A DNA stretch of 64,000 bases, taken from contig QPGO01000047.1 of assembly GCA_008632985.1 (NCBI GenBank), forward strand, positions 124,001 through 188,000. The letters run 5' to 3'. Shown here one piece after another: positions 7,600-63,683 of this stretch. Position numbers and translations under genes: made by a program. The notes below the pieces were generated by a model, which saw nothing but the letters and a program-made list of their open reading frames with translations, did not search any database and was not told where the DNA came from. Each line of letters starts with the position of its first letter. The stretch's first letter is position 1. Source of the DNA: Psammoneis japonica. Lineage: Eukaryota.

Positions 7600-8090
7600 A
7601 GAAAGAAACAGAATGAGTGTGTGCATTTTTGTGTTTTTTTACACAGCAATTGCAATGACACACTCACACCTTTTTTGCAATGCTGCTGCTCTTTGTTCTT
7701 TCAGAATCCAAAGAGAAAATGACCCATTGCCATCCAGAAGAGCTGTGGTGTCCTTTGGGAGCAGTTGAAAAAAGCAAGAAAAGAAACAGAATGAGTGCGC
7801 ATTCACACATTTTGCACAGCAATTCCAACAACACACTTTCCCTTTTTCACCCCACCAATGATGCTGCTCTTTGTTCTTCCAAAGCTTCAAAGAGAAAAAA
7901 AAGCATCACCGTCTGCACAAGCTGTTGTGTCCTTTTGTGGCAAAGGCAGAAAAGAAACAGAATGAATGATCATTCATGTGTTTCACACATCAACTCTGAT
8001 GACATGCTCATGCCTTTTTTCCCAAGAACACTGCTGCTCTTCATTCTTCCAAAGTTTCAAAGAGAAACAAAGCCATCAACTTGGAGACCC
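7600..8090. repeat. Degenerate tandem repeat, about 175 bp unit, 3 copies
   Basis: aaagaaacagaatga...tgctgctct...caaagagaaa starts near 7602, 7780 and 7951. Confidence 0.8.
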
Positions 8091-9884
8091 CAAACTGCAA
8101 ATGATGCTGCAGCTGATGGAGTGAGCTGCAAGAACCTGCTGGAGCATCTCCATGTCTCCCATGAATGACGCCATTCCATGTCAAGTGAGTGACTTCTGTT
8201 TTCGAGTTGAGCTCATAAAACCATTCCATTTTCATCAGTCATCCAACTGCGCACTTTGTTGGATCAACAGAGACAGCATCATCAATCACCAATGCTGCAA
8301 CATCACAAGCAGAGATGATCTGCAAAACAATGTGGATGCCAGCAAGAGATGTGGACACAGAAACATGCAACAGCCTCAAAGTGACACTTGCCGAGTGAAT
8401 CATGTTCTCTCACAATTGCTCTGCACATGTTGCTTGCACCTTGTGCCACTTTTGGTTCATTGCCACTTTTGGCTTGCTCAAAAAAATGAATGAGTGATGC
8501 AGTGATGAGCAATGAGCAAGATTTGGATTGTCAGCTTTGCTTGGCGCCTGTGGTGCTGCACACGCAGAAACCATGACCCTGTGACAACAAAGGAGCAACA
8601 AGTGTCTTCATCACCACAGGTGGCGCAAATCCAATCAAAGTTCAGGTTGGGTTTCCTTGGTGAGAGGATCTCAAATCCAGCCCCAAATGGATTTGCACCA
8701 CCTTCGGTCTCATGAAGTTAAATGCGTGAACACCCATCTCCAAGAGTGTCACATTTGGTGCAACCAACTGGCCAACCCGCCCACTGAGCACAGTCTGTTG
8801 AGCTCATGGTCAAGAGAGAAGCACAAGCAATGCTTGCTTGTGCTTGACATGTTCAAGTCAACAGCCAAATTATGAGCGAACCGAAGGCAGCACTGATTTG
8901 AGCATCGGCAGATTGCCTCTCAGTGCCTGAAAGGTTTTTTGGGTGTGCAGTTGTGAAGAGCCTGCAAAGAATGGAAGGGAACAGCAGAAGGAGGCACAGC
9001 AGCAGCTGCAGTGATGGTGGAATAGAATGGAGTAAATGCAGTGGATGTGCGGTGTTTGGTTCAAGGGACAGGGAACGTAGGAGCAGGAAAAGTTGAGGCG
9101 AATCGAAGGGCATGCACAGAAAGATGGAGGAGGACTGCATTGCAGCTGAGAGCCTGAAGAGCCCATTGGGATGGAGAGGCAGTGTGGAAGGTGCTGCCAA
9201 AGTGGTCAGAGGACAGGCAACACCATGCAGAATCAGCCAATGGAAGGAGAGCAGACAGAGAGGACAAGGCGTGGAGAAAGGCGGAGTGGGAAGGGTCAGA
9301 GTGCCGAAAGTCAGAGGGAGAGGACCAAGGGGGCTTGGGTTGAGACCGGACGGATGTGAATGTAGAGCCAAAGAGGAGGCAATGAGCAAAGAAGCCAAGA
9401 CCACCGAGGTGATCAACGGTGAAAGGGAGAAGGAAGACGCCGTCATTGTTGAGCGAAGAAACAACAAGGGAGCCATCAGCAGAGGAGGGGAAGGGCCAAG
9501 AAACTTCCCGAACACAGATTTATGTTTATATTTAGTTTTTCAATTTTATTTATTCAATGCATTCATGATAACGGATTCTTGCTATCAGGAAATACAATTA
9601 GCAACGGAAACAAAAATGAATAGAGTAGTCAACACTGTAGGTTATTGTCTTCCGTTTGGAAATTTCGAATTCTGACAGCTGACATAGTGGTCGAGATTTT
9701 CAGCGTTACGGCGTGCATTATTTGGCCATGACCCATGACCATGTGCAGCGCACAGCTCAAGCAACAAGCAAACGGGGCTTTCGGCTTTTCGTGCACGGCA
9801 TACTGTTACTTTCTCTGAGTCATCCCCCCTGAGACGCGCCAGTACTGTATACAGTACGTACATACTTGACGGTCCATCACAAGA

Positions 9885-19344: not shown

Positions 19345-19760
19345 CGCTCTTGCAGCAAGGACCAATGACAGATATTAATCAGATGCTATCCTAACAGTTG
19401 CAAGTCTACCTACATTTACCTAAGAACTGCCACTGAGTATTCATAATACGATGGCCCTTATTCCTTGCTTTCTCCTCTCTTGACGACTTCTGGATTGTTC
19501 GTAAAGAACCACAAAATGAAGTTCCCAACCTGTCCTATTCTGTCCGCAACGGAAGTGCTGTGATCTCAATGGTACCAGCTCTAGCAGTAGTGATCAACAA
19601 TAGACAATAATCAGATAACTAACCTAAATCTTGTACATCTACCTACCTATATCTAAGAAAGGCCACCGGCTACTCATAATCCGTTGATCCTTATTTCTTG
19701 TTTTCTCCTTTCTTGACGAAGTCCGGATTGTTCGTCAAGAACCAAAAAATAAAGTTGTCA
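19345..19760. repeat. About 235-bp tandem duplication of the 3' end and 3' flank of the LRR gene
   Basis: 19458-19523 (minus) encodes NFILWFFTNNPEVVKRGESKE*, versus NFIFWFLTNNPDFVKKGENKK* at 19691-19756. Flanks also align. Confidence 0.75.
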
Positions 19761-20921
19761 TCGCTGCGCGGACCTGCCAAGACATGTGGCCAAAGAGCTG
19801 CAGACACGTTGTCGCGACGCAGCAAGTGTCTTCCTGCACTATTCATGTGAACGTAGCAATCCATTTCATCTTGCGTCTCCTCGTCAACCGTCGGCATCCA
19901 CACCTGGTCAGCAGAATACGCAGCTTCTCCAATGTCCTTGGGTGTGGTTGTAAGCGACAAGCAGCCGTCCAGCTGGAGATAACGAAGCCTCGGCAGCTGA
20001 AGAATTTCCTTTGGAATAGACGTCAAGTGTTCACACCCAACCAGACCCAAGACACTCAACTTTGTGAGCAATCCCATCTTTGGAGGAAGCTCGAATAATT
20101 CGGAGCAATTTATAAGCTTTAACCACGTCAGATTGACAAGATTGCAAACGACGACTTGCAAGAATTCATTCAAGCCGGGGCCGTAGTTTTCAAGCATAAG
20201 ACATTGAAGCTGTGACAGCTTCCCAACTTCAATCTCGGGAGTTTCGTGAGTTTCTTGCAATCCACAAGATAGAGTTCTTCAAGTTGCTGTAACTGTCCTA
20301 TTTCAGGGGACAACTTCGTGAGAGACCGGCCAACGTGTAACCGCAGCTCCACCAAGTTTGTCAACTGCCACAATTGATCTGGCAACTCTTTGAGACTTTC
20401 GCAGTGGCGAAGGTCAAGGAGACGCAGTTGCTGCAGCTGCCCGATTCCCTTTGGCAACTCTGCAAGACTTTTGCAATGGCAAAGGTGAAGTTCTCTCAGT
20501 TGCTGCAGTTTCCTGATTTCCATTGGCAACTCTTCCCGATTCCCGCAGGCAAACTTCTGAGAGCACTGCAATTGCACAAGTTCAGCTTCTTCAAGCTTGT
20601 CAATTCGCACACTTCATTGGGCAAGACAACGATGCTCCGGCACTCAGTTAATTGCAATTCTTCAAGTCGCTGCAGCTGCTCAATTTCTCGAGGGATCCGC
20701 ACAAGATTGATGGAACTCACGGCCAAGACTTCAAGTCGACACAACAAGCCAATTTCGCACGGAAGCACAACCAAACTGGGGACAGAGCACAAATGCATTT
20801 CTCTTGCATTGATGCACTTCTCGTGCTCCAGTGAAAAAGTGTGCAACAACCGCCACTTTGGCAGTCCCGCAGCTTGTTTCATGGCAGCGAGGATCAGGTC
20901 GGAAGGGTCGTCATCGTCCAT
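19691..20921 (-). pseudogene. Leucine-rich repeat protein, frameshifted, 5' half TpA-converted
   Basis: LRR units (LPxEIGxLxxLxxLxL..C) spread over three frames, with shifts near 20535 and 20240. Diatom-type C-terminus N.AGR.LL...LWP.VL. Confidence 0.85.
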
Positions 20922-21029
20922 TGTTGTTGCTCTTGTTCCCTTGCAACCGGGCTGTGAGAGCAACGCACTGGCTCAAAGTGAGCGTGTTGACAAAAAAAAC
21001 TGTTGGTGATTTCAAATGCCATTGACGAC

Positions 21030-21435
21030 CGTGCGCCGGGCCATGACTCGTTGTGTGTGTCAAGAAAGCATTGCGCGATGCTTTTCTTGTGTTTCTTTTT
21101 GAAAAACGAGCCAGCTTGCACTGCCAGCACTTGTGCTCAAAAGACAATGTTTCGTTGTGCGGTGCAAGTGAAACCGGGCGTGCTAACTCCCAAGGGGCTG
21201 TCGTCTCTCGTCTCCACGTGTGCATTTAGAGGGCCTGCCGCAGTTGTTCTCTGCGACCTGCGCCGGGCCATGTCTCGTTGTGTGTGCAAAGAAAGCGTTG
21301 CGCAGTGCTTTTCTTGTTTTTCTTTTGAAAAGAGATCTTGCCAACACCAGCACTTACGACTGTTCAAAAGCCAATGTTTCGTTGTGCCGCACAAGTAAAA
21401 CCGGACGTGCCAACTCCAAACGGACCATCGTCTCT
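21030..21435. repeat. Direct repeat, about 228 bp unit, 2 copies, upstream of the LRR pseudogene
   Basis: tgcgccgggccatg.ctcgttgtgtgtg...aagt.aaaccgg.cgtgc.aactcc starts near 21032 and 21259. Confidence 0.85.
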
Positions 21436-32232: not shown

Positions 32233-32954
32233 GGTGATGGTGGAGATCGTTTCGTGACAAGTGACAAGTGAAAGCGTTGACACTTTATTGTGGAAGCCTA
32301 CCATACACGCATACTGTACAACGAACCTTCGTACGTATCCTGATCGTGGCTTCAAGTTGAAGAACAATGAATGACGTAATCGACTGCAATGGTACTGTAC
32401 GACGTGTGCGTTCTGTAACTATTCTCTAATGAGAGCTTTTATAACTGCAAGAAACACCATTTTTGTCACAAATAATAAATGATAAAAAGGTCTAGTAACG
32501 GCAAATTGTGTCTTCTAACTTGTGTTGCGAAAACCGGTCAACAGGGAGACGTCATTGGTGGACATCATGGCATGATGGATGGAAGTCTTCTTTCGCCGCT
32601 TCCTTTTCGGCTCCTCACTTCCCACCGCTCGCTCTCAACCCGCGCCTCCCTGGCAGTCTCCCGCTGCTCTCCACAACTCTGATGCCTCCTGCTCTGCCTT
32701 TCTTCATGCCCCCTCCTCCCCTGCGCTGACTTCACCTGCTGCTGCGGAGCCCACCTTGGCACCACCGATCGCTTTGGCAGCACACATCGCTCTGCATGCC
32801 AAGCTGCAAGCAGCACCCAGTGCCACCTCTCTTCTTGTGCCACTTGGTTCCTTCCCCTGCCCTGTCCACACACCAAATGCCCTGCTGCTCGTCGCTGTGC
32901 CCCCCTCTGTCACCCCCCCGCAGCCACCACCGCCGCTCTGAGACAGCTGCCTTG

Positions 32955-33200
32955 ACACCATTTTGCACCCTTGGCAACATTGTGCCCTTGGCCACCTTGT
33001 GCTTTCTGTTGTTTTGAACCCACAGCCACCATTTTGCACCCTTCTTAATTTTGCGACCTTTCGCATTTTGCACATTTTGAGATTTTTTGCCCTCGGTTTG
33101 TGCCCTTGGCAGTTTTGCGCCCTTTGAAATTTTTGCCCTTGGCCATTTTGGGCTCTTTGTCATTTTGTGCCATGAGCCACAATTTTGCCCCCTCTGAGTT
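32955..33200. repeat. Cluster of short ttttgc(a)ccctt(ggc) motifs
   Basis: About 8 variants of tgcccttggc / ttttgcaccc in about 250 bp. Confidence 0.65.
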
Positions 33201-33840
33201 GGCATGCTGAGTTGCACCCCAAAGTTGGCATGCCAAGTTTTCCCCCAAAGTTCGAGTTTGCCAAGGTTCGACACACCTGTGGCAAGTCGCCCACGTGTTT
33301 GCCTCCCAAGCCAGCAAATTTTGGTGGTTAAATTTGGGTTTGTGTTTTGCTTCTTTGGAAAATGTCTCATTTTCATTGAGATGAGTCGGCTTGACAACTT
33401 GTGCCATTTTGTGGGGCTGAATGAGTTGTGAAGGTGTCTGCCCACATGTCAGTCATGTGTTGTGATTGAAATCATGGGGAGTCACTTTTGGGTGTTCTTT
33501 GGCGACCATGATTGTGTTTTAGAACTTTGACTCCAAGGCTTTCAACCAATCTGACCTCAAATCCATCACTGCAGACTCCTCAAGCAAACTGTGGAGTGAC
33601 AGGATTTGAACAAAATTTCAGTTCATCACACATGATCATGTGTGCTCGCAGCTCCGCACGCAGCACATGATGCACTTTGCTTTCAAGCCACTTGGCTCAC
33701 AAGAACGACAACAACAGCTCTGACATCATGACACCAGTCTTTTGACTCCTGTGGTGGTCTCTGCATGGAGACTCATCTGCTGTTTAGACAGCAGTGAGGA
33801 GTCATTGTTTTCTTCCACCCAATCATCTTCAATTTCTGTC

Positions 33841-33930
33841 ACTTGCCAAACTCGCCAAACTTGCCAAACTCACCAAACTTGCCAAACTCATCAAACTTGA
33901 CAAACTTGGATGCCTTGCCAAACTCGAAAA
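33841..33930. repeat. 9-bp minisatellite (AAACTYRCC), about 8 copies
   Basis: acttgccaaactcgccaaacttgccaaactcaccaaacttgccaaactcatcaaacttgacaaactt. Confidence 0.9.
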
Positions 33931-33999
33931 ACTCACACCGCTGCAACAACAATCCTGGGCCAAAGCAGAAAAGTCAAGGGGGGGTCATCCCCACATTCA

Positions 34000-35230
34000 T
34001 CCCAAAATGGTGTTTGTTTCCGAATGCAAAAAATTGTTTGCATTCACACCAGATCATGCAAAAAATGAGAACCACCAGGCACTGCAGTCAAAGCATGACA
34101 ATGATGCAATCATCAATCTTTCTTGAAAACACAGCGGGGCAACCACAAACTTTTGATCCACGTGTGATCTTTGACACAAAAAAGGAGCACAGCTGGAAGA
34201 TTTGGTGTGTCAGATGTGACGCTGATGATGCCCCCAGTGTCAGAAGGTTTCTCCAGCTCGTTGACCTCTGCTTCACAATGGGCACCCTTTTCAGCTTCAC
34301 TGTCATCATGAGAGCCCCTCTTCGTCATCCAAAACTTTCTTCTGTGCCTCTTCTGGCTGGGTCTCCCACACCACAAAGCCATCAACAGAAGCTTTTTGCT
34401 TCAGAGATGCTGGGGTTTCTTCTTCTGTCTTGTTCATTGTTGCTGGCTTCATCCTTTGCTGCATCTTCAGCACCACCTGTTGCTGCTTCTGGCTCTTTTG
34501 CAGGCACTTGGTTTTCTTTGTGATTTTGCAACGGATTTTTGGTGCTGTGTTCTGGGGTTGGGGGGAAGCTGTTGTTTGGAGCATCATCCTGTTCTGCATC
34601 TTCAACACTGCCTTTCACTGCTTCTGGCTCTTTTGCAGGCACTTGGTTTTTTTGTGATTTTGCAGTGGAACTTCCGGGAATCATTGTTTGGAGCATCATC
34701 CTGCGCTGCATCTTTGACACCACCTTTTGCTGCTTCTCTGGCTCTTTTGCAGGCACTTGGTTTTCTTTGTGATTTTGCAATGGATCTTTTGGAATCTTGG
34801 CACTGTCTTCTGGGTTTGGGTGGGAGTTGTTGTCTTGGGCATGTTCAGAGTTAAAATGTGCAGCACTGACTGTGCCATGTGGGTCCATTGCTGGGTCCAT
34901 TGTGGCTGACTCTTCTTTGTCTGTGACGTGTTCAGATTGGATGTGAGAAGTGCAGACTGTGCAATTTGGGACCATCGCTTGCTCCATTTTGCCCGACTCA
35001 CCTGACCAAATGGCACTGCTTTCCATTTTGTCCTCCTGGGCAGGTTCTTCAATTTGTGGACCTTCCTGCTGGTGCCCAGCCAACAACTGATTTTTGTCAT
35101 TGTGCTCAGCGTCTGCTCTGTCTTGAGACTCACCCTTGCACTGGCACTTCTCAAACCCACCTTTGTTGACCTCTCTGCACTCACATGGCTTGTGATTGAG
35201 GAAACTTCCAGCAGATGAGTGTTGCCTCAA
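34000..35230 (-). pseudogene. Relic low-complexity acidic protein with 3 internal KENQVPAKEPE repeats
   Basis: ORF 34382-35230 repeats K(E)NQVPAKEPE. DNA motif ctggctcttttgcaggcacttggtttt occurs near 34489, 34624 and 34738. No Tyr. Confidence 0.55.
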
Positions 35231-36666
35231 TCATTCTTGCACACTCTTCCACTGATTTTTCATCCTTGTGGCATTCGTGGAAGTGGTTGCAGTCGCTGCA
35301 ACTTTTGTCATCATCAAACACACAAATTGGCGCCTGCCCCCCCCCCCCACACAATGCAGATCAACCAGAAATGCAGATCAACCAGATTGGATGGTGCTGG
35401 AAACTTGTTTTTGGCAGGGCCAGCATCTGAACTCTCAAGCTTGTCACTGGTGCTGTCATGCCTTGGAACCTGTCAGGCTGGACCCTCTCCTCTCTAACAC
35501 CATGCCTCTCATTTCCATGGCACTTGTTTTCCAGATGCTTTGTTTCTCAGAAAGAGCATCAAGGCTGCAGTGCAGAGGTGCACAACAGGGGGCAGACTTT
35601 GTGACCCTGTGTTTGGGGCAGCTCCCAATTTGCCTGCATCTTGCCGTGTCATTTTGGAGCAGGTGGAGATTGTGTCAGCCGGCCCCTGCACCAAATTCCT
35701 GATTTTTGTTCCTGTGTGTTTTGTCATCCAGCCCACAAGTGGCTGAAGCTGGCAACTCAAGCAGAGGTGCCAAGTTTGCCCCCTCTTGCTTGCGTGCATT
35801 TGTTTCATCCTAAACATGCACCAGGCAGGTGCCCCAACCTCCATGCTGTGGAGCCAAGCTGGTGCTGCGTGGTTGTTCGTGCCTCCCAACAGACAACTGG
35901 CTGGCACCCTTTGGTTTTTCTGCAACTCAGCTTTGACTGTTGAGAGGAGTGCTGCTGCCCCTGCTGTTTTTGCTTCCTTCTGTGTGTCCTCCAGCTGCTG
36001 CCTGGCCAAGTTTTTTGACATCCCTGTGGCACAACCTGCAGACTGAAGCACCGCCCACCCCGACTCGGAGAGTGCTGCATTTTGCGCGCACTTTTGAGTT
36101 TGTGAGAGGGCATCAGCCAATGCAAGCATGTCTCAGCCTGTGTTTGAGTTTGTGCTGGCACACCTTGTGCTGCATTTTCCTTCCAAAATTTCAGCATGTT
36201 TTGGCGTTTGAACAAACGCCGCCTGTGTGTGATGGTCAACACGGTGCACCACAATGCTGCTGGCACACTGCTGAAAAAGTTGCTCTGGTTGTTCTTGCTG
36301 GACCCTTGCAAGTGCAGCACGATGCCAGGCACAAAATAATGACAGATGCTGCGTGACACGAAAACAAAGAGAAGCCAGCTTTGCACAAAAAAGTCACACA
36401 CAACAAAATTGATGTGTGTCGTGAAAGCATGATGTGGCAACAAGTGATCTAAATATCCGGGTTTCTTCCCGATAGATTTATGAGAACCCCATTCGGCATG
36501 GCTGATGTGTGAGTTCGCGCGAAGAAAAGTTTAGCATACTTTCTCACAAAGTCCGTTTATTATCATGCTCATTATGAATATCTTTATAAAACGGGTTCGG
36601 ATTCACATTTTGAGAGCTCTGTCAGCAAAAATCCACATCAAAAGTGGGAGACAATGAACTTCACCC

Positions 36667-50705: not shown

Positions 50706-51638
50706 TTAAAGAAACTTGTGAATCGCCGTATAGGCATTGTCCTGGTAGGTTTCATTGGTAAAGTCATCCATAAAGCACGACTGATCCGTCACCTCCCCAC
50801 TAAAGCCCTTTTTGCTGGCATAAAAGACACCCGTCTTGTAGGTTTCATCGTCCACCAAGGCATCGACATAACGCTTGGCACCCACATCGACCTTGTGCAT
50901 GGATCCCGTCACGGACATGATGGGCATGACTACTTTAAACAGGGCGCGCTTGAAAAGGGGCAAGTCGCCGGCCGCTTCGGTACCCGATGTGCCTCCGGGA
51001 CTCATGGTGACGAATCGAAACTTGGGTTCCTTACGAGCCATACTGGACATGTACAGTGCTCCCATGTACTTGACGTGACCATAGGTGGCTTCAAAGGACG
51101 TGTCCTTGACATACGCGGATCCGTCCAGATACGGCGTCAGTTCCTCCACGGTTCCCTCCTTGATATCGGGACGAGGAAATTGAAAGGACTTGATTCCACG
51201 AGCCGCCTCGCTTCCCGACAAGACAACCGAAGCACCCTCGACTAGCTTTTTCGCCTTGATGAGTTCTTCCACCAACAGAACGTGTCCCATGAGATTAATC
51301 GCAACCACGGCCGGCACACCAAAGTCCGTCTTGGCCATGTGATCGACTCCGCCCTTGCCTCCGGCGTTCAACACCAATCCATCCAGCTTACCGTCAAACG
51401 CTTCGACAGCCTTTTTGACAGAATCGGGTTTGGAAACATCCATAACGACAACTTTGTAGACATTCGTTTTACCCGTGGCCTTTTCGAGGTCCTCCTTGGC
51501 CGCATTGGCACGCTCCTCGTTGCGGCATGCTAGATAGACCGTTTCCATGCCGTCCAATAGTCCCAACTGCCTCGCACACTCTTTTCCCAAACCAGCATTG
51601 GCGCCTGTCACCAATACGTTTGTAATCTTGTTAGTCAT
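50706..51638 (-). CDS. Short-chain dehydrogenase/reductase
   Basis: VTGANAGLG, LACRN, LNAG, N..GH, YGHVK (YxxxK). Confidence 0.92.
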   Translation of the reverse strand: MTNKITNVLVTGANAGLGKECARQLGLLDGMETVYLACRNEERANAAKEDLEKATGKTNVYKVVVMDVSKPDSVKKAVEAFDGKLDGLVLNAGGKGGVDHMAKTDFGVPAVVAINLMGHVLLVEELIKAKKLVEGASVVLSGSEAARGIKSFQFPRPDIKEGTVEELTPYLDGSAYVKDTSFEATYGHVKYMGALYMSSMARKEPKFRFVTMSPGGTSGTEAAGDLPLFKRALFKVVMPIMSVTGSMHKVDVGAKRYVDALVDDETYKTGVFYASKKGFSGEVTDQSCFMDDFTNETYQDNAYTAIHKFL

Positions 51639-52016
51639 GATGGCAATACAGTATGGATGATGTGTTCTGATGACAGTTCTGCTGCTCTGCTGCAGTGTTG
51701 TTGGTTTTGTGTGTGTATGTTGTGTGATGCATCTTCTGTTGACTGTTGAATGCTGTTGGATGTTGAAGCCACCTGCGGCAAGTTGAAGTTCTGACAGCTT
51801 CGAACGCTTCGATGAACTTCTTGGTTGATCACCTCTAATACTTTATTCAATGACATATAAAATTGTATTGGACATTTTATACATAATAAAATCTGCATAA
51901 GTTCAAATATCGACGTGGACCAATAAAAAGAAGGCTTGCGCCACGTCCTCGGCTTTCCCGCGCAAAAACTGCCTCCAACAAACTCCAAAACACACGCGCT
52001 ATCAACAGAGCCAACC

Positions 52017-53023
52017 ATGACGCTCGCTACCGCTACTCCTGGTAGCAATGACGACGTTCTTGTCGACAAACCAAACGCCACATTATCACCAACAATTTCG
52101 TCATCGTCTTCCATGACGAGCCAGAAGCAAGAGCCTTGTTTGCTCGAGGAGTCGGTCGAACTCAAAGGTGTAGAGGATGTGCTTGCAGCTCTCACTCCTG
52201 AAGAAAAGGCGGAATTGGCAGACGAAAACATGCCACTAAGACACTTTCGTGCGGAAAAGGTGAGTGTGCGAAAGCCATGTACGAGACTGTAAGGAATACA
52301 CGTGTGTTGTGGAAAAAGTGCGCTCACCTTTTATTGTTGTTACTGCTTCATTTTTTTCTTTTTTGATGTTCGCAGGGCAATACAAAAGAAGCCATTCGCA
52401 AAATCAAAGCCACCATTGCATGGCGCAAAGAGTTTCAAGTCGAAAAACTCAAACGATGTTTTGACGAGGACGGCGATGAGGAATTTCGATCCATCATTAC
52501 CAAAGAAAATGAAACAGGCAAAATCTACGTGCGCGGCCACGACAAGGAGGGTCGATCGTGCATGTACATGATTCCTGCAAGAGAAAACACACACGACGAA
52601 TTGAACAACATGAGGCATTTGGTATTCATGTTGGAAAAGGCAATTGCGTGCAATGAAGATGGTTTGGAAAAGATTCATCTCATTATTGATTACAATGGCT
52701 TCAAAATCAAAGACTCACCGCCCCTTTCCACCTCCAAGCACACCTTGACTATATTACAAGATCATTATCCCGAACGCATGAAGGTATCGTGGGTATGCAA
52801 TCCACCCATGACGTTTAAAATCTTTTGGACCATTATCAAACCCTTTGTCGATCCCGTCACCAAGGAAAAGATTGTCTTTTGTCACGGCAAGAGCGGACAA
52901 GCGAAATTGGCCAAAACGTTTGATTTGACCAAGATGGAAAAGTGTGCGTTTGGAACAGAGACATTGAAGGAATTCAATTCCAAAGAATTCTTGGCATTGC
53001 CTTTTGACAAGACTTTTGAGTAG
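52017..53023 (+). CDS. CRAL-TRIO/Sec14 lipid-binding protein, 2 exons
   Basis: LRHFRAEK, intron 52260-52375, GNTKEAI...WRKEF, GHDKEGR, ILQDHYPER, FVDPVTKEKI. Confidence 0.92.
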
Positions 53024-53254
53024 AATGTAGTAGCGAGATGGATAACGCTACGTTTTACCGGTAGTAGAGAGTGGTTCTTATACTTTTTGGTTGGTACAAG
53101 TACTTTTGGTTCGTGGACATCATGGCGTGCTTGGTGTGAATGTGCTGTTAAGAACTCCGTGGTGCTGACATGTACATTGAAATCGTAGCCTTGAAAGTCG
53201 CTCGTAGGTTTTCGTTCTCAAATAGTTACATCACACTCATGGCATTGAAGTCTC

Positions 53255-53791
53255 TTGTGGGGTGCGTCAAACAGGTCTCACGGAAAGCAAGCCCTTAGCC
53301 ACAATTCTGACAGGAAGTGGAGTGCATGTCCAGAAAAAGACATTGAAGCCTGCAATGGCGATAAGGCTGATTGCATGGCCACTGCAGATGACGCATCAAG
53401 CCAATTCAAGTGCATGATTCAGCCCACCAACTCAAGTCATTGTCGCTGCATCCAAGAAGAACGAAGCTGGACCGAAAAGATTCACATCTGTGAATGCGAG
53501 GCAAATGAGTGGCATCAGCTTGGTCATGACCTCAACAGAGAAGTTCAACCTCACCCATTCATTGAATTGTCTTGTTCCATTTTGAGTGACAGAACTCACG
53601 TGACCTTTGCCGCTGGGAACAATGGCGCACACGTCTCAAAGCTTGGGGCTGGTTGTGCATTGCCATGGGCCAATGACTGTGCAGCTCTTACAAAAAATGT
53701 GCAAGCTTGCATTTTCTGTTGCGTGTGGGTCACAGAAGCCATCACATCTGTCATGGAATTACCCACCCCAAGAGAGCTTCAGCTCATTTGA
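53255..53791 (+). pseudogene. Tyr-free relic ORF, beta-propeller/FG-GAP-like after back-conversion
   Basis: IHICECEANEWHQLGHDL reads IYIYEYEANEWYQLGYDL if TG/CA are reverted to TA. Confidence 0.45.
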
Positions 53792-54174
53792 TGCTGCTGG
53801 TTTCGCTTTTTTTTCATGTCATTTCACTCAAAACCAGATCCCTTGATCTTGTTCAATTTGCACATCTGTGAAAGAACAAGGTGGAAGAAAACAGTTCAGA
53901 TGTTGCATGTTGCACTTTGAGGATGCAGTCAATTGTTAAGGCAAGTGTGGGCATGTGTGAAGAGCAAGAGTGGGTCACTGCACAGCAGGCTGCCCACTTG
54001 AGGCATGTCAAGTTTTGTGCGACCGAGGTGTCATTTTTGCCAGTGGTGTGAAATGAAACCTCAGCAAACTCTCATTGCAGCTGTTGAAAGGATGGATGGT
54101 CAGCACATTGTTCGACAAACCTGAACCCAGCTTGCTTTGAGCATTGCTGCTCACGAAGTGTCGCGTCCATTTTC

Positions 54175-55243
54175 ATGATGACATGTGCACATTGGTGTGC
54201 ACTGCTGCCAATGGTTGCAAAGGTCATGTTTGATGCGATGGCGCAAGGTGTGTCAATTGCTGCAAAAGCAAGTCAAGACATGCTTTGCGCTGCTTTGGCT
54301 GCACCACGATTTTTGCGCCGATCGAAAGCCACGATGACTCCTTTGTCCACCTCCAGAACATCCTGCGCAACACCATGCCTGCAAGCATGCCTTTTGACCA
54401 CAAGGACTGTGACTCCACCCTTCTTCACAACGCCATTCAAAACTGCACACCTGCAGAGGACATGCCAGTTGATGCTCTGTCTGCCAGTCCTCCTTTGACT
54501 TGTCCATCGAGCATGAAATCGATTTGTCCGACCATTTTCAAAACATCCTTCGAGAGCATGCGCCCGCCGCAATGATTGCCATCCTGACGTTTTCCGACAC
54601 TTGCGAGATTTTGTCAAATTTCACTGGTGAGACCATGTCAAAGCTGCGCACTGCATTCCACGAGTTCTCTTTGAAGACCAAGACTGTTCGTGAAACCGCT
54701 TCGACCTTGCACGAGATCATCCATGACTCCTTGAAGACCTTCATCACGAAGGCACGAATTCAGGCTCACGTTTGGAAAGAATGTATGACGATGTCGTTTC
54801 AGACACCAATGTTGTCATTAGAATGTTGGTGGACAACAATTCAAGAAGCAACTGACAGCTCTGTCACACTTGTTCAAACTCAGGCCCGCACTCTGTGTGA
54901 CAAATGCGAGACGATGCCGTTTTGGACACCAAAATTGTTTTGCATCCAGAACATTGGTGGACGAGAGTTCAAAACTCGTGAAGGAGCTTTTAATCTGGGT
55001 GCGAGTGCGGGTGAGCAAGATGTCAAGAGTTGGGGACGTTCCTTGTGCCCCGATCCGAATCATGCGGTGAATTGGGCCAGTTGTTTGACGTGTGCGGCAA
55101 GAGGGGCATGGTGTGTTGTAGAGCGGGATCAGCTGTTGTGCAGTTTACATTCGGAACCTTGGCGCAAGACGATTCTGTTGAGAGTTTTCTGTTCATTGCA
55201 TTGGATGGTGGGATCTAGCTGTGCCATTGCAGAGCGCACATGA
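54175..55243 (+). pseudogene. Tyr-free relic gene, frameshifted, unknown product
   Basis: Overlapping ORFs 54285-54575 and 54500-55243 read as protein-like text with C/H at Tyr-like positions. Confidence 0.5.
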
Positions 55244-55520
55244 CAAGAGCAAGTGTCCAAATAGTCTCCCTGCTTTCATTTCGTCCGCTTCGTCAAAAAT
55301 GCCAAAGGAAATGCTGCCTCCATCGCTTGAAGAGCCTCTCCAACCGGTGGAAGCGAGATTTAAGTGCAGCTGTGCCAGTGCAGAGCACATGCAACAAGAA
55401 CAAGTGTCCAAATAGTCTCCCTGCTTTCATTTTGTCCGCTTCGTCAAAAAAGCCAAAGGAAATGCTGCCTCCATCGCTCAAAGAGCCTCTCCAACCGGTG
55501 GAAGCGAGATTTAAGTGCAG
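55220..55520. repeat. Near-identical 150-bp tandem duplication
   Basis: caagtgtccaaatagtctccctgctttcattt...gcgagatttaagtgcagc occurs twice, 150 bp apart. Confidence 0.92.
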
Positions 55521-56447
55521 CCAATGAAACGCAGCTTCACCGGCATTGCGAATCACCGCATCAGGTTTTTCCTTTGGAACGCTCGGCACGCGACCAATTG
55601 TTTTGAGAGAATTGGCAATCTGGTGCTGCTCGCAGACACTTTCCAAGCAGTGGTGCATTTCGGAAACAGCATCGTCAAACAAGATCACTGGCAAGGAGGT
55701 GCAAGCATCCTCCAGTGGTGTGGATCGTGCGCCCGCACACACAATGTGAATTCGAAACTCCGTGCAAGGCCTTTGAACCATCAATCTTGAAGGCACCAAA
55801 ACTTTAAGGTCTGACAATGTTGTGGAAGAAGGGGAAGTGAGAAGTGAAAATCGAGAACGGATGGTCACGGTGCGAGCTTGCGATGAATGAATTTGTTGTT
55901 CCTCACCTTGCTGTCAACAACAAGCTGCGGCAGACGGGATTCATTCAAGGCGGGCAGCATTGGAGAAAGCTTCACGCCTTTCTATGCGGCGATCACTGAC
56001 ACTGCCATTTCTAGCGTCGGCTCTTGTCCTTCCAACACAGCTGCCCCGACTCGGTGCTTGACTTGCTTGTCATCAAAGGTTCCCTCAAAGTTTGACAACG
56101 TGCGCGAAATTTCGGAGACTGTCAACCGTGTGCCATTTCTCCTCGTCGTCGCAGGAGAGAAGACTCAACTTCTTGGTGCTGTCGCACTTGGCTGCCGTTG
56201 CAGGAAACCATGACTGCAGCACATGGATTGAGACCTGTGCTTGTCGTCATCAACTGGCCCGATTGCTTCCATGTTACTGCCGGCCGACAACGAGAAGGAC
56301 TCTTCAACTTCATCCGAAAAGTCAGTCAAACGAGTCTTTTGAAGCACAAAAGGGAATGAGAGACAATTGGAGTGTGCCCTTTCTGCCCCATTCCTGGCTT
56401 GTGCCTCGTGCCGCACCCCGTCTGTTGTCACGAGATTGTCTCGAGAT

Positions 56448-56537
56448 CGTGTCCCGCGCATCACCGTCCCACGTCCCGCGTCTCACCGTCCCACGTCCCA
56501 CGTCCCGCATCCCGGCGCGTCCCGTGTCCCACGTCCA
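56448..56537. repeat. GTCCCRC short-motif array
   Basis: About 8 copies of (c)gtcccac / gtcccgc upstream of ORF 56689. Confidence 0.8.
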
Positions 56538-56688
56538 AAAGAAATTTGTAAATTCCAAAAGCCTGGGTCGTGCCAGCGTGTGTGCTTGTCTGTGTCACCA
56601 AAATGCAAGCACGACATTGCACGGCACAGCAACGGACGACAAAAACCGACAAAACCTGTTCGCAGCTTTGACCTGCTGCTGAATCACC

Positions 56689-58017
56689 ATGTCGTCATCT
56701 GCCACTGATCCCTCGAACACTCCTGAGCGTCTCGTCAAGAAAGGTGTCCAAAAGAAAATGAAGCCATCCGGTCCTCTGTTTTCCGCTGACATGCTTTCTC
56801 CGGTCGGCAAGAAACGAAAGACTTTGCAGTCTCAGGCGTCGGCAAAGAAACGCCGTCCTGATGGAGCTGTTGCTGCTGCCCAAATGCCCCAATTCGAAGC
56901 TCGTCTTGATGAAATCGAAGAAAAGAATGGATGCCAAAAGGAAATCACGACGATCGTCAAGTCCTGTGACAAGATGCTCGGCCCGGTCGATCGAGCCTGC
57001 AAGCATCTCAAATCAAAACTCGAAAAGGCAGCCAATCACCATGATTCTGTGAAACAAGCTAGAGATGAGGCGAATCGAAAGTTTGATGAAATCGGACGTG
57101 ACATGGATGAAGTCGATGCGAAGATCAAGTCTCCATTGAGTGAAGTCGAAAACCTGCGCGCTCAGAAGAAAGAAATGACCAGCATGCGCGAAGCTGTCAC
57201 GTCGGTGGCTTTGAACCTTGCCACCACAGTCAAGGCCGAGAACGCCGTGTCTTCTCCATCCACACAACTTGAGGAAGCGAAGAAGAACAAAGAGCTTCTT
57301 GAGAAGGAACTTGAACCCTGTCAGCATCTTCTCAGACAACATCGTGTCATTTGGAGGGATTGGTCTGGTGAGCAAATGTTTGAAAACTTGGAAATGGAGT
57401 TTTCACGCAATTTTCTAGAAAATCTGGACAAGGAGAGGCTTCTGATCATCAAGAAGGCTGTGAAGATTTTTGGCTTCCCGCCAGCAAGACACTTCAATGT
57501 GAGGAACAAACCAAAAACGGGTGTGATCGACGACATTTGCACTGCAGCAGACATGCCTCTCCCAGAGTTGGCATTTGATCCTGAAGCCATCCAGAAGGCA
57601 GTGCGAGAAGGACGCGCCAACTGGGATGCATTCAAGCAAAAGGTTGCGATGGCGGATGCAGCGCACGCTGCGAAGGACTGCGAGCACATGGATGGCATTT
57701 CTGATGAAGAAGAGCATGGTGAAGAGGATGCTCAGACAACAGGGGGCAACATTTCGAAAACATCTGGAAGACGAAAGAGCATTTGGAAAACCAATGGATC
57801 AAACCACTCTGGAGCAACACTTGTCTTAATCTTGCTCTGTCAAACATCGGCACAGCAGGAGCAGGGCCCTGCGTCTGGACAGGTGGCACCTGCACGACAA
57901 GGACGTGCTTCCTGCAATCCCGGGAGCGCTGCAGCCGACGCAGCTGTTCGAGAAAAATGCGTCAACGGCAAACCGGGTGCAGCAAGCAAGATGTTGTGCG
58001 ATTCCTTGCTGGCTTGA
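56689..58017 (+). pseudogene. 442-aa coiled-coil, NLS-bearing ORF with no tyrosine; hypermutated gene
   Basis: KKRK and KKRR motifs, heptad region, no Tyr, and GCQ, KSCD, RACKHL, KDCEHMD, EEHGE at Tyr-like positions. Confidence 0.6.
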
Positions 58018-58959
58018 GGCAGATCCAAATTCGTCTAAAACAGAAAGATGAAAAACTGCGAACTGGCGGCTGTGCCCTCCAACTCAATTCCAGCAACCAC
58101 CCAACTGGCTCGTCAATCAAATGGTCACTCTGGGTGACTGAGTCGTCACCGACAAATGCACAGACAAAGGCAAAGAGTCGACAGGCAAGGTGCCAGCGAG
58201 GAATGAACTGCGAATCAATCTCGCTTGCAGGTTTGAAGCGACTCCATCTGCAAAGAAGCTCAGTCAAGAATGAAATTTTCCTGACAAGGCCTTCAACCAA
58301 CAGCGCAGGAATTGACACATTCAGACGGGCAACTGCAGATCGTTCTGAGCGTTGAACCAGTCGCTGCACTCATTGCATCTGCGAATCACTGGTGCCAGCA
58401 AGGGCCAGAGCAGCAAGCTTCCCATCAGCAAAACGCTTGCCTGCATCCTGCGTGCAACTGCAAGTGCGCTTCAATTGCAATGAGCAGCAAGAGAAGCTTC
58501 AGCAAACAGAGTGCGAGAACAATGCATTGAAAATGAGAAGGAGACACTTGACGAATGAAACAAAACAGGCGACTCACCTCGACACGTGCTCATTCCCCCA
58601 ATGACGTCTCGAACTTCTGGCCCAAGCGTCACTGCCATTCTTTTCTTCATTCCATCCATGTTACATTGAATCGCTTGTTGCTTTGCCGTAAGCGATTGGA
58701 AGTCTACAAAGGCGGTGCTCGAAAGCAAGTCACCGGATGCTGAACCTGTGAGATGCTCCCAACCCAGCTTTCTTGCTAAAGTGGGCTGCTTCTTTTTCGG
58801 GATCTTTCGCCGTTGATCTTGTGTCAAACGAACGCATTCAGCATCAATGCCAGGTATGTTGATTCAACTCTTGAGTCATGCTGCGCAAGGACAAGAGAGA
58901 AAGCAGGAATTTTTGGTGCCAAGTCTCATCGGCGACAGGGCAATGTTCAAAGAAGTCAC

Positions 58960-60175
58960 TCACTCGCAGTGATGCTGGAGTGCCGGATATGTCCTTGCGT
59001 CTTTAACAGCACTGCTCAGAGGGACAGAGTCAAACAATTTATTGTGCATGTCTTCACGCGATTCTCTTTGAGCAAGAACAGCAGTCGGCTCCTTAGGTTC
59101 GTTGAGATGCTTAGTGACAAGTGTTCCGCCCTTGGCGCACTCGTCTAGACAGCTCAAATGTTCTGCGAGTTTGTGGACTTTCTTTGCGTAAACGTGTTCA
59201 CATGCGACAATGTGCTTCATTCGAGTCTGAACTAGCTTTCTCAAGTGTTCGTGGTTCAGTGGCACTTCTGCATGCTTGATCTGGTCGGAAAAATGTTGTC
59301 AAAGAAAGAGTGCAGAGCCTTTGTCGTGCCTCTGTGCCGTCAGAACACACTCCACAAGTGCTGTCTCACGGCACTGTCTCTTGTGTTTTTCTTCGAGAAA
59401 GTATCCGTTCTCAAGGAAATCGCACCGTAGCGGAAGAAAGAGCTCCCAGTCCGTCCACAGTCTTCTCAGAATTTACAGAAACTGTGGGTAAAGCAAAGCC
59501 ATAACAACCCAGAACCTCCAGCTTCCATTTTCGACCGCAATGACAGTCGTGCTGTAGAAACCGACAGAAGCTAAACCATTCCCTGAGAAGCCAGATAGGG
59601 AGCGAAATGAATGTGGGCCAGAGAGAGAGATGTGGAAGCCAAACAGAAGAAACCGTAGTGTCTTGAAATTGTCTAGCCCGACATGTCGCAAGAGCTCGTG
59701 GTCTTCGTCTGACAATGGCCGTCGTCCCATGTCTTCAGAAAGACAGTTCTTTGGTTCACCGGCACAGGACGTGGATCCTTGTCTTGGATCAGTTGTGCCC
59801 GTCTCCATGTGCGGTGTGAACTTGAGCAAACCAGAGAGAGTGCGCTGACCGCATGCTGCGAGAATCGCAGCTTCGCAAGCCTGCTGGCCCCTTCTGTGCC
59901 CATGATTATATCGCCATCACTGCTTCGAGGCGTTTGAACTGGAAAACTCATTCGATTCTTGAATCTAATTCGTCGGGAAGTGCTCCCAGGAAGGGATCAT
60001 CGTTCCATTTTCTGGTCTGGTTCTGTGCAAATCGACGCTGCTCTTGTTCCTTTCGATCTTCCTCCCCGCAAAGTTCACGGCACTCTGCATCTGATTTTTT
60101 CTCTTTAAGTGCGTTTTCAAGTTCGTTTGCAATGCCCGGCGTGCAAGAGCGTGAAATGAAACATTGGCAATTCAT
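58960..60175 (-). pseudogene. Fragmented, partly converted relic gene
   Basis: Protein-like minus-strand fragments (SDAECRELCGEEDRKEQE, LRKLVQTRMKHIVACEHVY) in different frames. Confidence 0.4.
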
Positions 60176-60306
60176 CCTCTGTTGAAAACAACTGTGGCAA
60201 GTAATAACGGCAGTGTTGCGTTTGGCAGTCCCTAGATTTCGACCGGATGGAAGGGTATAAAATCATGGTAGAGAACTTGCTGCAGTCGATCTGCTCCACA
60301 AGCTTG

Positions 60307-62109
60307 TCATGACATTGCTGCTGGTGACACAACTTCCTCCCAGAGTGTGTTTCGTGGCAATTCGTGTTTCAATGCCAAAGCAAGCGCGTCCTTCATCATG
60401 GGTCCATCATTTACAACGGCGTCCTTTCCGTGGCGCTTGTATAGCTCCATGTATGACTGGAGACCTTTGGTGGTCAGGTCTTGATCGATTTCAGGATCAA
60501 ACAGCACCGGAGAAAAGTTGAACACAATCAACCAGACCTTGTCGTCGACATCCATCATCAAATCGGCAGAAAAGATCTCAAACTGCGGTTTGCACATGGA
60601 AGTATCAGTTTGCCTCCGAGCACAGAGCTTGCCTTGCTCAATGGCTCTCGACACAACGCTCGCGAGGACTGCTTGGCATTTCTCCAAGGACCAACCCTTC
60701 ACCTCATGTTTACGCGATAGTCGTAGTCGCTCGTGACGCTGAATCGTGACTTGAGTTTCTGGCAAAAGATCAAGCGGACTCCACGAATTGGGTGAAATCG
60801 ACAAGTAGGCATCACGGTTGGTATAGAGCTTCCATTCCCCGCTCGACTCCTGGAGCAAAAGACTGTAAAACTTTAAATGACACTTTTGGCCGTTTCCGAC
60901 AAGGCGGGGGTTCAAAACGTGCTGTTGAATGATGTGTGTAATCGATGCTTTTCTGATGCTTGGTGATTGACTCGTGGCTGCTGCAGCTCGGCATTCCGAC
61001 AGGGTAGAGAAGCATTCTACAGCACGGCCGCCATTCTTGTCACACTCCTTCAAAAAGAAAGGACCGTTCGTCTCATTGTCCGATGTGTCCTCTGTCACGA
61101 GTTGGCTTTCAACAATGCTGCCATGTTCATTTAGAAACCATGTCGGTGGCATGGCATCATATGCAAGGCTGTGCACCTTTTCCTTTTCGTCGAGCCATTC
61201 TCTTCCCTTGATGAACGTGGATACTTTGCTAAACTGCGGTTCGTCGCACAGGTCTATGACACGCTTACCCAGCGGGCAATAGTACTGCCTTTCATGCGAC
61301 GAAATCATGGATGCGCTATTGTACCATTCCTGCTGTGGGTACTCGTACCAGTCTTCTTGCATCAGCAAACGTTTCATATAGAGTGGCCCATGTCCGCCCC
61401 GCCCCACACTGCAGCAGAACTTGACGCTCTTGTCACTGCCATTCTCGTTGTAGAAATAGTTTTCAAGCCCTACCGCAGAATCAATCATTTCTTCCATGGA
61501 AATGACGGACGCATACAGGGGAATGACGTGCTGCATGACCGCGTATAAACGATCTTCGTTGTCGTCTTGGATACACTCTTGCACGACCGACACTTGTTGG
61601 ATACTGCTCACATCGCACAGCATTTGACACGTGATTTGAATCGAAAACGAGGCCTTTATTCCCACTAGAGTAACATGAGTAACGTTCTCTTGTTCCAAAG
61701 CCGCCAGAATTTTCTGCATGGGCGGCATATGTCCTTGCCTCCAAATCGTAACCGCGTTGCTCGCGTCAACAATCAAGCTTGATTCTACTTCCGACGACGC
61801 GCTGCCTGTTGTAAACCATGACACTGACTTTGTCTTTTCGTATAATCGTTTCAAACCTCCATAGATCTTATGATTGGAGTCAATTCCCCCATAACCGGCG
61901 GGGAACTGCAAGCCAGTGTATATGATTGTCCAGTGGGCAGCGTGAGCTACTTGAACGCACGTCCGAACCAGTTCCAACAGAGCTTGCCGCTTTCCTTCTG
62001 GCGTTATAGACTGTAGCATGTCAGGTTGCATATCACATATGATCAAAGCATCCTTTCTTGAAGAGAACGGTAGGGTATCCATGGTTGCTAGTTTGCAGCG
62101 GCCATCCAA
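60307..62109 (-). CDS. Isochorismatase-like domain fused to tubulin-tyrosine-ligase-like ATP-grasp domain
   Basis: N-terminal ALIICDMQ...VTHVTLVG. C-terminal FFLK.....GR, IIQQHV.NP.L, K.HLK.Y, FEIFSADLMMD...VWLI.FN.SP. Confidence 0.75.
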   Translation of the reverse strand: MDGRCKLATMDTLPFSSRKDALIICDMQPDMLQSITPEGKRQALLELVRTCVQVAHAAHWTIIYTGLQFPAGYGGIDSNHKIYGGLKRLYEKTKSVSWFTTGSASSEVESSLIVDASNAVTIWRQGHMPPMQKILAALEQENVTHVTLVGIKASFSIQITCQMLCDVSSIQQVSVVQECIQDDNEDRLYAVMQHVIPLYASVISMEEMIDSAVGLENYFYNENGSDKSVKFCCSVGRGGHGPLYMKRLLMQEDWYEYPQQEWYNSASMISSHERQYYCPLGKRVIDLCDEPQFSKVSTFIKGREWLDEKEKVHSLAYDAMPPTWFLNEHGSIVESQLVTEDTSDNETNGPFFLKECDKNGGRAVECFSTLSECRAAAATSQSPSIRKASITHIIQQHVLNPRLVGNGQKCHLKFYSLLLQESSGEWKLYTNRDAYLSISPNSWSPLDLLPETQVTIQRHERLRLSRKHEVKGWSLEKCQAVLASVVSRAIEQGKLCARRQTDTSMCKPQFEIFSADLMMDVDDKVWLIVFNFSPVLFDPEIDQDLTTKGLQSYMELYKRHGKDAVVNDGPMMKDALALALKHELPRNTLWEEVVSPAAMS

Positions 62110-62693
62110 CTCGCTTCTGCCATTGCGTTTACTTGCCGTGCCAATTGTCGCAACTTTGGAGCACGATTACCCAAACACGATCGTCGTGTCCCTCTCTGAT
62201 GGTTTTTGCACTCACAGAGCTCTCGCCTCTCGCGCGAGTGGGAATGTGCATTCACGTCGTTACTTCGAGAGTCAGTCAACCATCGCTTGCGCAAACAATC
62301 TCCTTTACAACGTGATTCATTCTTCCTTCTTGGCATGCGAACATCATCATGCCGAAAGAGTTCACACAACATCGATGCAAACGCATGGTGGTGTGCACGG
62401 ATGAGAGAGGACGAGCCGCGCCGCTCGAATCTCGAGGCGCGCGCAGCAGAAATAACGCGCATGGCATGATGGGTGGTCGTGTCAGAGTAGCATTCGCAAA
62501 ACACAAACATCACGATTGATTCAAGAAAGCACCTCATAATAATTGTCGTTCGATAAGGAGTCTGCAAGTTTTTCTTTTCTGACTGTCGGACATCGAAATC
62601 GAGTGCGTTCCAAGAAAGTTGAGATTTTATTAGTGGCTCTCTGCTCTCTCTAGAGGACCAGGAATTGCGCAATACAACAGCAGTTTGGATAAA

Positions 62694-63683
62694 ATGCGTT
62701 TGTCTCCTTCCCATCCCGCCAACACGAACAAGAAGCAGCATATTGTTGTGGCGCTCGGTGGAAATGCCTTGCTAAAACGTGGAGAGCCACTCTCGGTATC
62801 GGTACAGCGCAAGAACATTGCCGAGGGGATGCAACGTCTTGGTCCCATCTTGCAAAAGCACACTGCTACAATCGTACATGGCAATGGTCCTCAAGTTGGG
62901 TTGTTGGCGCTCATGGGAGCCGCCTATCAAAAAGAGTCGGGTATTGAACAGATGGAGCTTGATGTGTTGGACGCGGAGACCGAAGGCATGATTGGGTACT
63001 TGATTGAACAGGAGCTGCATCCCTACATTGCTAGAGAGCGGGGAGTTGTTACACTCTTGTCCCAAATTGTGGTGGATCCCAATGACCCTGCCTTTGGCAA
63101 TCCCACCAAGTTTATTGGTCCCATTTATACAAAAGAGGAAGCGAAGAAGATCAAAGGAACTCTCAAAAAGGACGGAGAGTACTATCGACGAGTTGTTGCA
63201 TCACCACTTCCGGTGAGACTCATTGACCAGCAAATGCATGCCGTAAAACTCTTGACCGCGGCGAATGCCATTGTTATATGCGCTGGAGGAGGTGGTATAC
63301 CCGTTGTTGAAGATCCAGAGACAAAGCAGCTAAAGGGTGTTGAGGCTGTCATTGATAAAGACCGAGCTGCAGCAATGATGGGCCGCAGTCTCAAGGCTGA
63401 TGGTCTGCTCATTTTGACCGACGTGTCGGGAGTGGCAATTCATTTTGGTTCTTCAGACGAGAAGTGGATCAAGTCCGTTTCTCCCGAGCGGCTGCGAGAA
63501 ATGGCGGATCAGTTCCCAGCAGGATCCATGGGTCCAAAGGTGGAAAGCGCCATTGAGTTTGTCGCACAGAGCGGCGGGTGGAGTGCGATTGCGTCATTGA
63601 AGCATGTCGACAAGATGATGGCGGGTATGGCTGGCACCTTTGTGACGAACGATCATGGTCCTGACCACATAGAATATTATTGA
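62694..63683 (+). CDS. arcC: Carbamate kinase
   Basis: [58 protein letters not shown]. Intronless. Confidence 0.96.

Follow-up and report, generated by a model that had tools for sequence, protein, structure and literature searches.

In the chlorarachniophyte alga Bigelowiella natans, mutation-accumulation lines acquired 231 of their 302 new nuclear mutations within two integrated viral regions, and nearly all of the mutations in these regions are A:T to G:C transitions, all on TpA (bioRxiv 10.64898/2026.01.13.699255). The same genome contains 124 clusters that are depleted in TA and enriched in CA and TG (Mettrop et al., bioRxiv 10.64898/2026.01.13.699255). According to the preprint, the targets are integrated giant-virus and virophage DNA, the hypermutation runs at about 1000 times the rate of the genome and in some clonal lines only, and an ADAT2-like DNA adenine deaminase has been proposed to be responsible; its authors raised the question whether many eukaryotes edit invading DNA in this way (bioRxiv 10.64898/2026.01.13.699255). 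The first report of targeted TpA hypermutation thus dates from 2026 and concerns a single rhizarian alga. Among the best matches of the literature searched, none describes TpA hypermutation in a diatom, and the B. natans preprint is the sole description found. The window considered here, the whole 64-kb stretch of DNA that was analyzed, comes from a diatom-like stramenopile and very probably represents TpA hypermutation in a second, distant algal lineage, with a signature described only very recently.

RIP, known from Neurospora and other fungi, consists mainly of C to T mutation at CpA in duplicated DNA, by which TpA is created and GC is lowered. It resembles the window in that dinucleotide-specific transition hypermutation affects chosen tracts with fairly sharp limits, genes within a tract are degraded, and there is a link with cytosine methylation. 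However, the tracts of the window lose TpA and their GC rises, and only part of one of them (I4, below) is multi-copy, whereas RIP needs duplication. Fungal RIP was rejected as the process at this locus, as TpA is removed rather than created and the GC content of the tracts (0.49-0.52) is not below that of their surroundings.

Another parallel is enzymatic. Deamination of A34 in tRNA follows U33, fungal ADAT-type editing prefers a 5′-U next to the edited A, and engineered TadA enzymes are used as base editors. TadA, ADAT2-3, and ADAR share with the signature in the window both the A to I chemistry, with I being read as G, and the 5′-T/U context; to our knowledge, natural action of these enzymes on chromosomal double-stranded DNA over kilobases has not been established. 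The B. natans preprint also refers to a 5′-U preference of ADAR and cites ADAT2 DNA editing in amphioxus (bioRxiv 10.64898/2026.01.13.699255).

In the window, the loss of TA is specific and confined to four discrete tracts, and the unit of loss is the tract, not the ORF. I1 (6388-9520) contains 13 TA, is CpG-poor (o/e 0.04-0.46), and has sharp borders. I2 (20340-21395) contains 5 TA, has intact CpG, and begins with a left border within a leucine-rich repeat (LRR) gene, while I3 (32518-36336) contains 7 TA in 3.8 kb and has a CpG o/e of 0.13-0.5. I4 (53364-58661), in which the Tyr-free ORF lies, contains 22 TA in about 5.3 kb, and its CpG is mostly intact except at about 53500-54500. A shoulder of partial TA depletion (58662-60600; TA o/e 0.18-0.33) follows I4 and reaches the 3′ end of the neighboring isochorismatase-TTL gene. 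Together, I1-I4 cover 20.7% of the window (13,264 nt). TA o/e is 0.47 for the whole window, 0.5-0.8 in its ordinary parts, and 0.02-0.15 in the tracts, with Rho_TpA of 1-kb windows within I4 ranging from 0.04 to 0.15. Gaps without any TA extend up to 1067 nt in the tracts as opposed to a maximum of 270 nt in the background (46,095 nt), and the probability of finding no TA across 500 nt is about 1e-9. Each of the four tracts has raised TG and raised CA, to about the same extent (in I4, 488 TG versus 503 CA). The patchiness of TG versus CA shows an over-dispersion (chi2/df) of 1.6 in the tracts and 1.38 in the background, and since these are about equal, no claim of strand-coordinated TG/CA patches can be made. 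Strong CpG depletion marks I1, I3, and part of I4, whereas the surroundings of the Tyr-free ORF are spared. Decay of CpG through 5mC deamination resembles these depleted parts in the loss of CG to TG/CA, but it cannot remove TA, and the Tyr-free ORF has a nearly intact CpG complement (o/e 0.85).

The borders of the tracts are sharp, with the transition taking only a few bases. Three tracts are intergenic and insert-like; I3 takes up the space that separates two divergent genes, with about 150-220 nt of normal DNA left at each gene start. The remaining tract, I2, cuts into the LRR gene (19691-20972, minus strand), which spans three reading frames and matches Pfam LRR_14 (8.2e-15 and 6.5e-9). 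TA is missing from the 5′ part of this gene (20340-20972) and normal in the 3′ part, with the border at about 20339. Either hypermutation spilled over into a host gene here, or the 5′ half of the gene derives from an inserted piece.

With TAA and TAG excluded, the tracts have long open frames in every one of the six reading frames. No viral or transposon Pfam domain was found in 93 tract ORFs, the LRR gene being the sole match, so these ORFs give no sign of a foreign origin of the tracts; a search of viral contigs likewise gave no match of the tract ORF family. Within I4, a repeat at 54208-55410 is multi-copy, with a depth of 387-799 versus about 63 in flanking unique sequence, and includes a 151-nt tandem pair (55217-55518). 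The region of the Tyr-free ORF is single-copy at a likeness of at least 85% (depth 57-83). I1 contains internal repeats of about 200 nt and about 180 nt. Neither an LTR nor a terminal inverted repeat was found by a repeat search around I4; reverse transcriptase, poly-A, and target-site duplications were not seen in the tracts, and the window gave no match in Rfam and tRNA scans. Contigs identical to the window have a depth of 57-72 over I4 and its left flank (51000-59941) as compared with 105-112 over the gene on the right (60361-62680); possibly only one of two haplotypes carries I4 and this flank, or the two have diverged there.

The genes of the window are long, mostly uninterrupted ORFs that encode ordinary host proteins, among them FtsZ, GFAT, a DEAD-box helicase, an HSF-type factor, and a carbamate kinase. 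In the Protein Atlas, the FtsZ of the window matched bacterial clusters only. The organism-named relatives of the isochorismatase-TTL protein are four diatom entries (Corethron, Fragilaria, and two from Cylindrotheca) at 31-38% identity, and no database entry near-identical to this protein was found.

The direction of change is given by contigs of a public DNA run from the same organism, compared with window positions 51000-63000, in which related pieces of 85-99% likeness occur. Among the 40 best-supported of 257 differences, the window carries TG or CA where the related contigs carry TA at 11 sites, and the reverse at none; TG or CA stands against CG at 11 sites, with three in reverse, and 15 differences are of other kinds. 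In the I4 shoulder, for example, related contigs carry TA at 60076, 60088, and 60111, where the window has CA or TG. These comparisons, along with the repeats discussed below, uphold the conversion of TA to TG/CA that had been claimed in the preliminary description of this DNA.

A different explanation would be a sequencing or assembly artefact, in which a modified base at TA (6mA or 5hmU) was miscalled as G or C. Over 56065-57111, the window and the only contig of the run disagree at four sites; three of these (56637, 56816, and 57071) are CG in the window and TG or CA in the contig. These three may reflect ongoing CpG decay, a strain difference, or a modification-linked base-calling error, and they hint that the CpGs of the tract are methylated. 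Though differences of this kind, close to the ORF region (about 1 kb at most), would be in keeping with miscalling, each piece of the run's contigs shows just 0-4 differences from the TA-free sequence between 55492 and 59941, a comparison in which the run may be the source of the assembly itself. The TA-free reading also keeps the ORF open and retains all of the invariant residues of its protein family, and an artefact is scarcely credible.

Repeats within the tracts indicate that the change occurred in place. In seven non-overlapping within-tract repeat pairs, CA↔TG accounts for 28 of 74 adjacent double differences (37 CA↔TG doubles when overlapping pairs are counted), compared with 1 of 24 for two pairs located elsewhere in the window. 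Some of the doubles in I1 and I3 could also stem from ancestral CG; CpG-intact I2 and I4 alone give 5 of 12. A CA↔TG double is the mark of a single ancestral pyrimidine-purine step that was resolved independently in each copy; duplication preceded the change, and the mutation took place in situ. Of the four copies of a repeat on the left margin of I1, the outermost keeps CG and TA at positions where the inner ones carry TG and CA. An ordinary local duplication with normal TA, that of a seven-helix membrane protein gene, served as a control repeat. Its two copies (1-862 and 3561-4424) correspond to the 3′ part of the gene, are 88% identical, and lie 3.5 kb apart.

The same evidence bears on the proposal that the tracts were imported from a virus or other donor of extreme composition, already TA-free on arrival, and have not been mutated in the host. 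Such an origin would fit the sharp borders of the three insert-like tracts between genes, and for most tract ORFs no relatives turned up. It is quite improbable given that a shared ancestral dinucleotide became CA or TG separately in each tandem copy, that related contigs of the same organism have TA at matching sites, that relatives of the Tyr-free ORF contain Tyr, and that viral contigs yielded no match. We also know of no donor with a TA o/e of 0.02-0.05.

The few TAs that survive in the tracts leave a context footprint. Of 47 leftover TAs, 35 are in a TTA or TAA context, as compared with 38% in the background. TTAA accounts for 30% of them versus 3% of the background, while GTAC and ATAT are absent, although they make up 9% and 6% of background TAs. 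Such contexts would be expected from an agent that converts A after T and acts poorly when the 3′ base is A, which would leave TTAA protected on both strands.

Set beside B. natans as described in the preprint, the window is alike in that TpA alone is changed to TpG or CpA on both strands, as seen here from fixed differences and there from observed mutations. In both cases, discrete tracts lie in an otherwise ordinary nuclear genome, TA depletion coincides with a gain of CA and TG in clustered windows, and many targets are unannotated. Besides the host, a diatom-like stramenopile rather than a rhizarian chlorarachniophyte, the two differ in degree: Rho_TpA is 0.02-0.15 in the window tracts, which is near saturation, as opposed to 0.45 in the active NCLDV region reported for B. 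natans. Also unlike what is described for B. natans are the sharp borders, including the one inside the LRR gene, and the CpG depletion of two tracts. The TTAA/TAA context of leftover TAs is a feature of the window for which the main text of the preprint makes no mention. As for the targeting of foreign DNA, the window has the multi-copy repeat at 54208-55410 and three insert-like tracts but, in contrast to the B. natans regions in the preprint, no viral or transposon domain among the 93 ORFs. When the B. natans cluster cut-offs, which are the 5% tails of another genome (Rho_CpA+TpG 1.52), are applied to the window, seven 1-kb windows pass, as does one 3-kb cluster at 33001-36000. The windows of the Tyr-free ORF pass for Rho_TpA (0.05-0.06), but their Rho_CpA+TpG of 1.28-1.43 is below the B. 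natans cut-off of 1.52.

The Tyr-free ORF (56689-58017, plus strand) comprises 442 codons and a stop. As the preliminary description had it, the ORF contains no Tyr, all six of the motifs quoted there are present in the sequence, and the frame is uninterrupted with plentiful CpG. At the Tyr rate of 17 long ORFs outside the tracts (7311 aa; 2.76%, range 1.3-5.0%), zero Tyr in 442 residues has a probability of 4.2e-6. Only three TAs occur in its 1329 nt (o/e 0.04), where about 46 would be expected at the background coding rate. Other codons follow suit, with no ATA or GTA and one each of TTA and CTA. The open frame is not due to chance, the probability of 442 open codons being about 1.4e-5 per frame at the tract stop frequency of 0.025. 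Directly upstream of the ORF is a 22-nt GC-rich short tandem repeat (56440-56540).

Codon junctions of the form NNT|ANN are likewise nearly eliminated, with one (0.23%) in the Tyr-free ORF versus 4.57% in background genes. The lost T|A junctions became mainly T|G, which changes the protein, and not the synonymous C|A. Sense-strand TG is raised, with an o/e of 1.55 against the 1.21 of the 17 genes; CA, at 1.19, is unchanged. The sense TG excess and the shift from T|A to T|G argue for mutation pressure rather than selection. Under selection, the absence of TA from the tracts would be maintained against some factor that recognizes TA or UA, such as a TA-cutting nuclease, TA-targeting transposons, or UA-cleaving RNases, and the ORF would have given up Tyr. 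TA is indeed moderately avoided throughout the genome, to judge by the background o/e of about 0.55-0.7. However, the depletion extends over non-coding DNA and both strands and then breaks off over a few bases, in one case within a gene, the junctions were resolved mostly at the cost of the protein, and TA is retained in related copies of the same genome. Selection against TA is therefore an unlikely cause.

The restriction of the TG excess to the sense strand of this ORF hints at a non-template strand bias. It would also be in line with A to I hyperediting of a transcript by an ADAR- or ADAT-like enzyme, followed by reverse transcription and insertion, as would the 5′-U preference of ADAR and fungal ADAT-type editing. 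Within each tract, though, TG and CA are about equal, so both strands would have to be edited. Tandem copies diverged in place after duplication, and one tract border cuts the LRR gene. With neither a one-strand A to G pattern nor the marks of a retrocopy (reverse transcriptase, LTR, poly-A, or target-site duplication) seen, retro-insertion of a hyperedited RNA is very unlikely and was set aside.

A full HMMER search retrieved 12 relatives of the Tyr-free ORF (E 1.1e-38 to 3e-4), the top match (1.1e-38) spanning query residues 72-342. All are at 33% identity or less, and the 10 that were looked up by cluster are unnamed or labeled "hypothetical protein" and come from metagenome-type sources. 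Each of the 12 contains Tyr, at 1-8 residues per protein, and the Tyr-free ORF retains 25 of 25 invariant columns of the closer alignment (A2). The family-matching core lies at 56902-57714 on the plus strand (residues 72-342), as delimited by HMMER, alignments A1 and A2, and pLDDT. A structure model reaches a pLDDT of 80-95 across residues 60-335, for which three long coiled-coil helices, a small helical domain, and one further helix are predicted; the small domain carries the conserved motif of the family (consensus in alignment A1). The best Pfam match of the ORF scores 19.2 bits against a cut-off of 33.2, with all matches being coiled-coil noise, and none of 13 family members reaches a Pfam gathering cut-off, so the family is without a Pfam model. 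A fold search with the model returned nothing at E ≤ 0.001 and only generic coiled-coil matches. A word-index protein search found nothing, and the Protein Atlas gave no usable match. A profile search of metagenome and viral contigs with alignments A2 and A3 retrieved no DNA of the relatives. Judged by its relatives, its retained columns, and the confident model of its core, the ORF is a real gene of an uncharacterized coiled-coil family. The Tyr content of the relatives and the 25 retained columns indicate that it was, or still is, a working gene.

It had been claimed that Cys and His stand in this protein where Tyr would be natural, a claim that is weak. Neither residue is in excess: the ORF has 10 Cys (2.26% versus 1.98% in the other genes of the window) and 10 His (2.26% versus 2.48%), and at the six quoted motifs only 2 of 35 aligned residues are Tyr. 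Only about 4 of the 20 Cys/His occupy aromatic columns: C104, H118, C211, and H218 fall in columns with Tyr in relatives. The C211 column has one Tyr and four Phe among 10 relatives, and that of C104 has one Tyr among seven. By comparison, C284 and H213 are ancestral and conserved as such, and C82 has no aligned residue in the relatives. The most conserved Tyr column (Tyr in 7 of 12 relatives) is Arg240 in the Tyr-free ORF. At an identity of 33% or less, the relatives neither prove nor exclude replacement of Tyr by Cys or His at single sites.

The C-terminal tail (57715-58017, plus strand) consists of an acidic stretch followed by about 80 residues without counterpart in the relatives, all of which terminate 0-25 residues beyond the acidic stretch in alignments A1 and A2. 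Homology to every relative is over by ORF nucleotide 975-1026 or so (residue ~342), and pLDDT is below 50 from residue 337 to 430. Since homology ends here, residues ~350-442 are probably read-through past a lost original stop, for which CAG at codon 349 or TGG at codon 366 are candidates. Loss of a stop (TAG to TGG or CAG, or TAA to CAA) would fit the tail better than an intron does. A former intron at 57746-57854, as had been suggested, finds no support: homology has already ended, pLDDT is low from residue 337, and no frame of 57700-58700 matches the relatives. Removal of approximately 57746-57855 moreover shifts the ORF into a Cys/Arg-rich frame without relatives. The accompanying argument that the process would destroy splice donors is logically sound, and a GTAAGT donor is used by a host intron at 22926.

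Near-total mutation of TpA to TpG and CpA in kilobase tracts, in place and driven by an agent, very probably explains the Tyr-free ORF. In this process, A:T to G:C transitions confined to TpA would occur on either strand over discrete, sharp-bordered tracts and would remove TAY, ATA, GTA, and most TTA and CTA codons in addition to TAA and TAG stops. Since TAY codons cannot survive the loss of TpA, the gene would become Tyr-free, and its frame probably ran past the lost stop. The agent would most likely be a DNA adenine deaminase of the TadA/ADAT2 type that acts in a 5′-T context, works poorly with a 3′ A, and is directed to silenced, repeated, or foreign DNA. Alternatively, modification of thymine at TpA, instead of deamination of adenine, would produce the same sequence signature. 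The CpG loss in two tracts would represent a later, methylation-driven decay, and a recent TA conversion is plausible because two other tracts have lost CpG too.

Taken more broadly, TpA-directed DNA hypermutation could be a genome defence shared by distant algal lineages, a reading that we put forward tentatively and as a whole. In the present genome, it would saturate kilobase tracts making up about one-fifth of the window, with base-sharp borders, would precede decay through CpG methylation, and would be able to spill into host genes such as the LRR gene. The TTAA/TAA footprint would then reflect the 3′ context of the enzyme, and a targeted element would have brought the Tyr-free coiled-coil gene along as cargo. 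If this holds true, the signature reported from one rhizarian alga occurs at saturation in a second, distant lineage, and sharp borders, TTAA/TAA resistance, and order relative to CpG decay are added as testable details. Tyr-free ORFs in combination with runs lacking TA could serve as a marker in genome scans. TA-erased tracts keep only TGA as a stop, and gene callers will therefore predict long false or over-extended ORFs in them; intron donors of the GTAAGT type are erased from the tracts as well.

A further observation concerns three relatives of the Tyr-free ORF (P0006, P0016, and P0017), which have a very high content of Met and Trp in their C-terminal tails, with 11 Met and 7 Trp among the 135 residues of the P0006 tail. 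Such tails are as expected from read-through of TA-erased DNA, in which ATA becomes ATG and TAG becomes TGG. This suggests that relatives of the ORF in other organisms may sit in similar TA-erased tracts.
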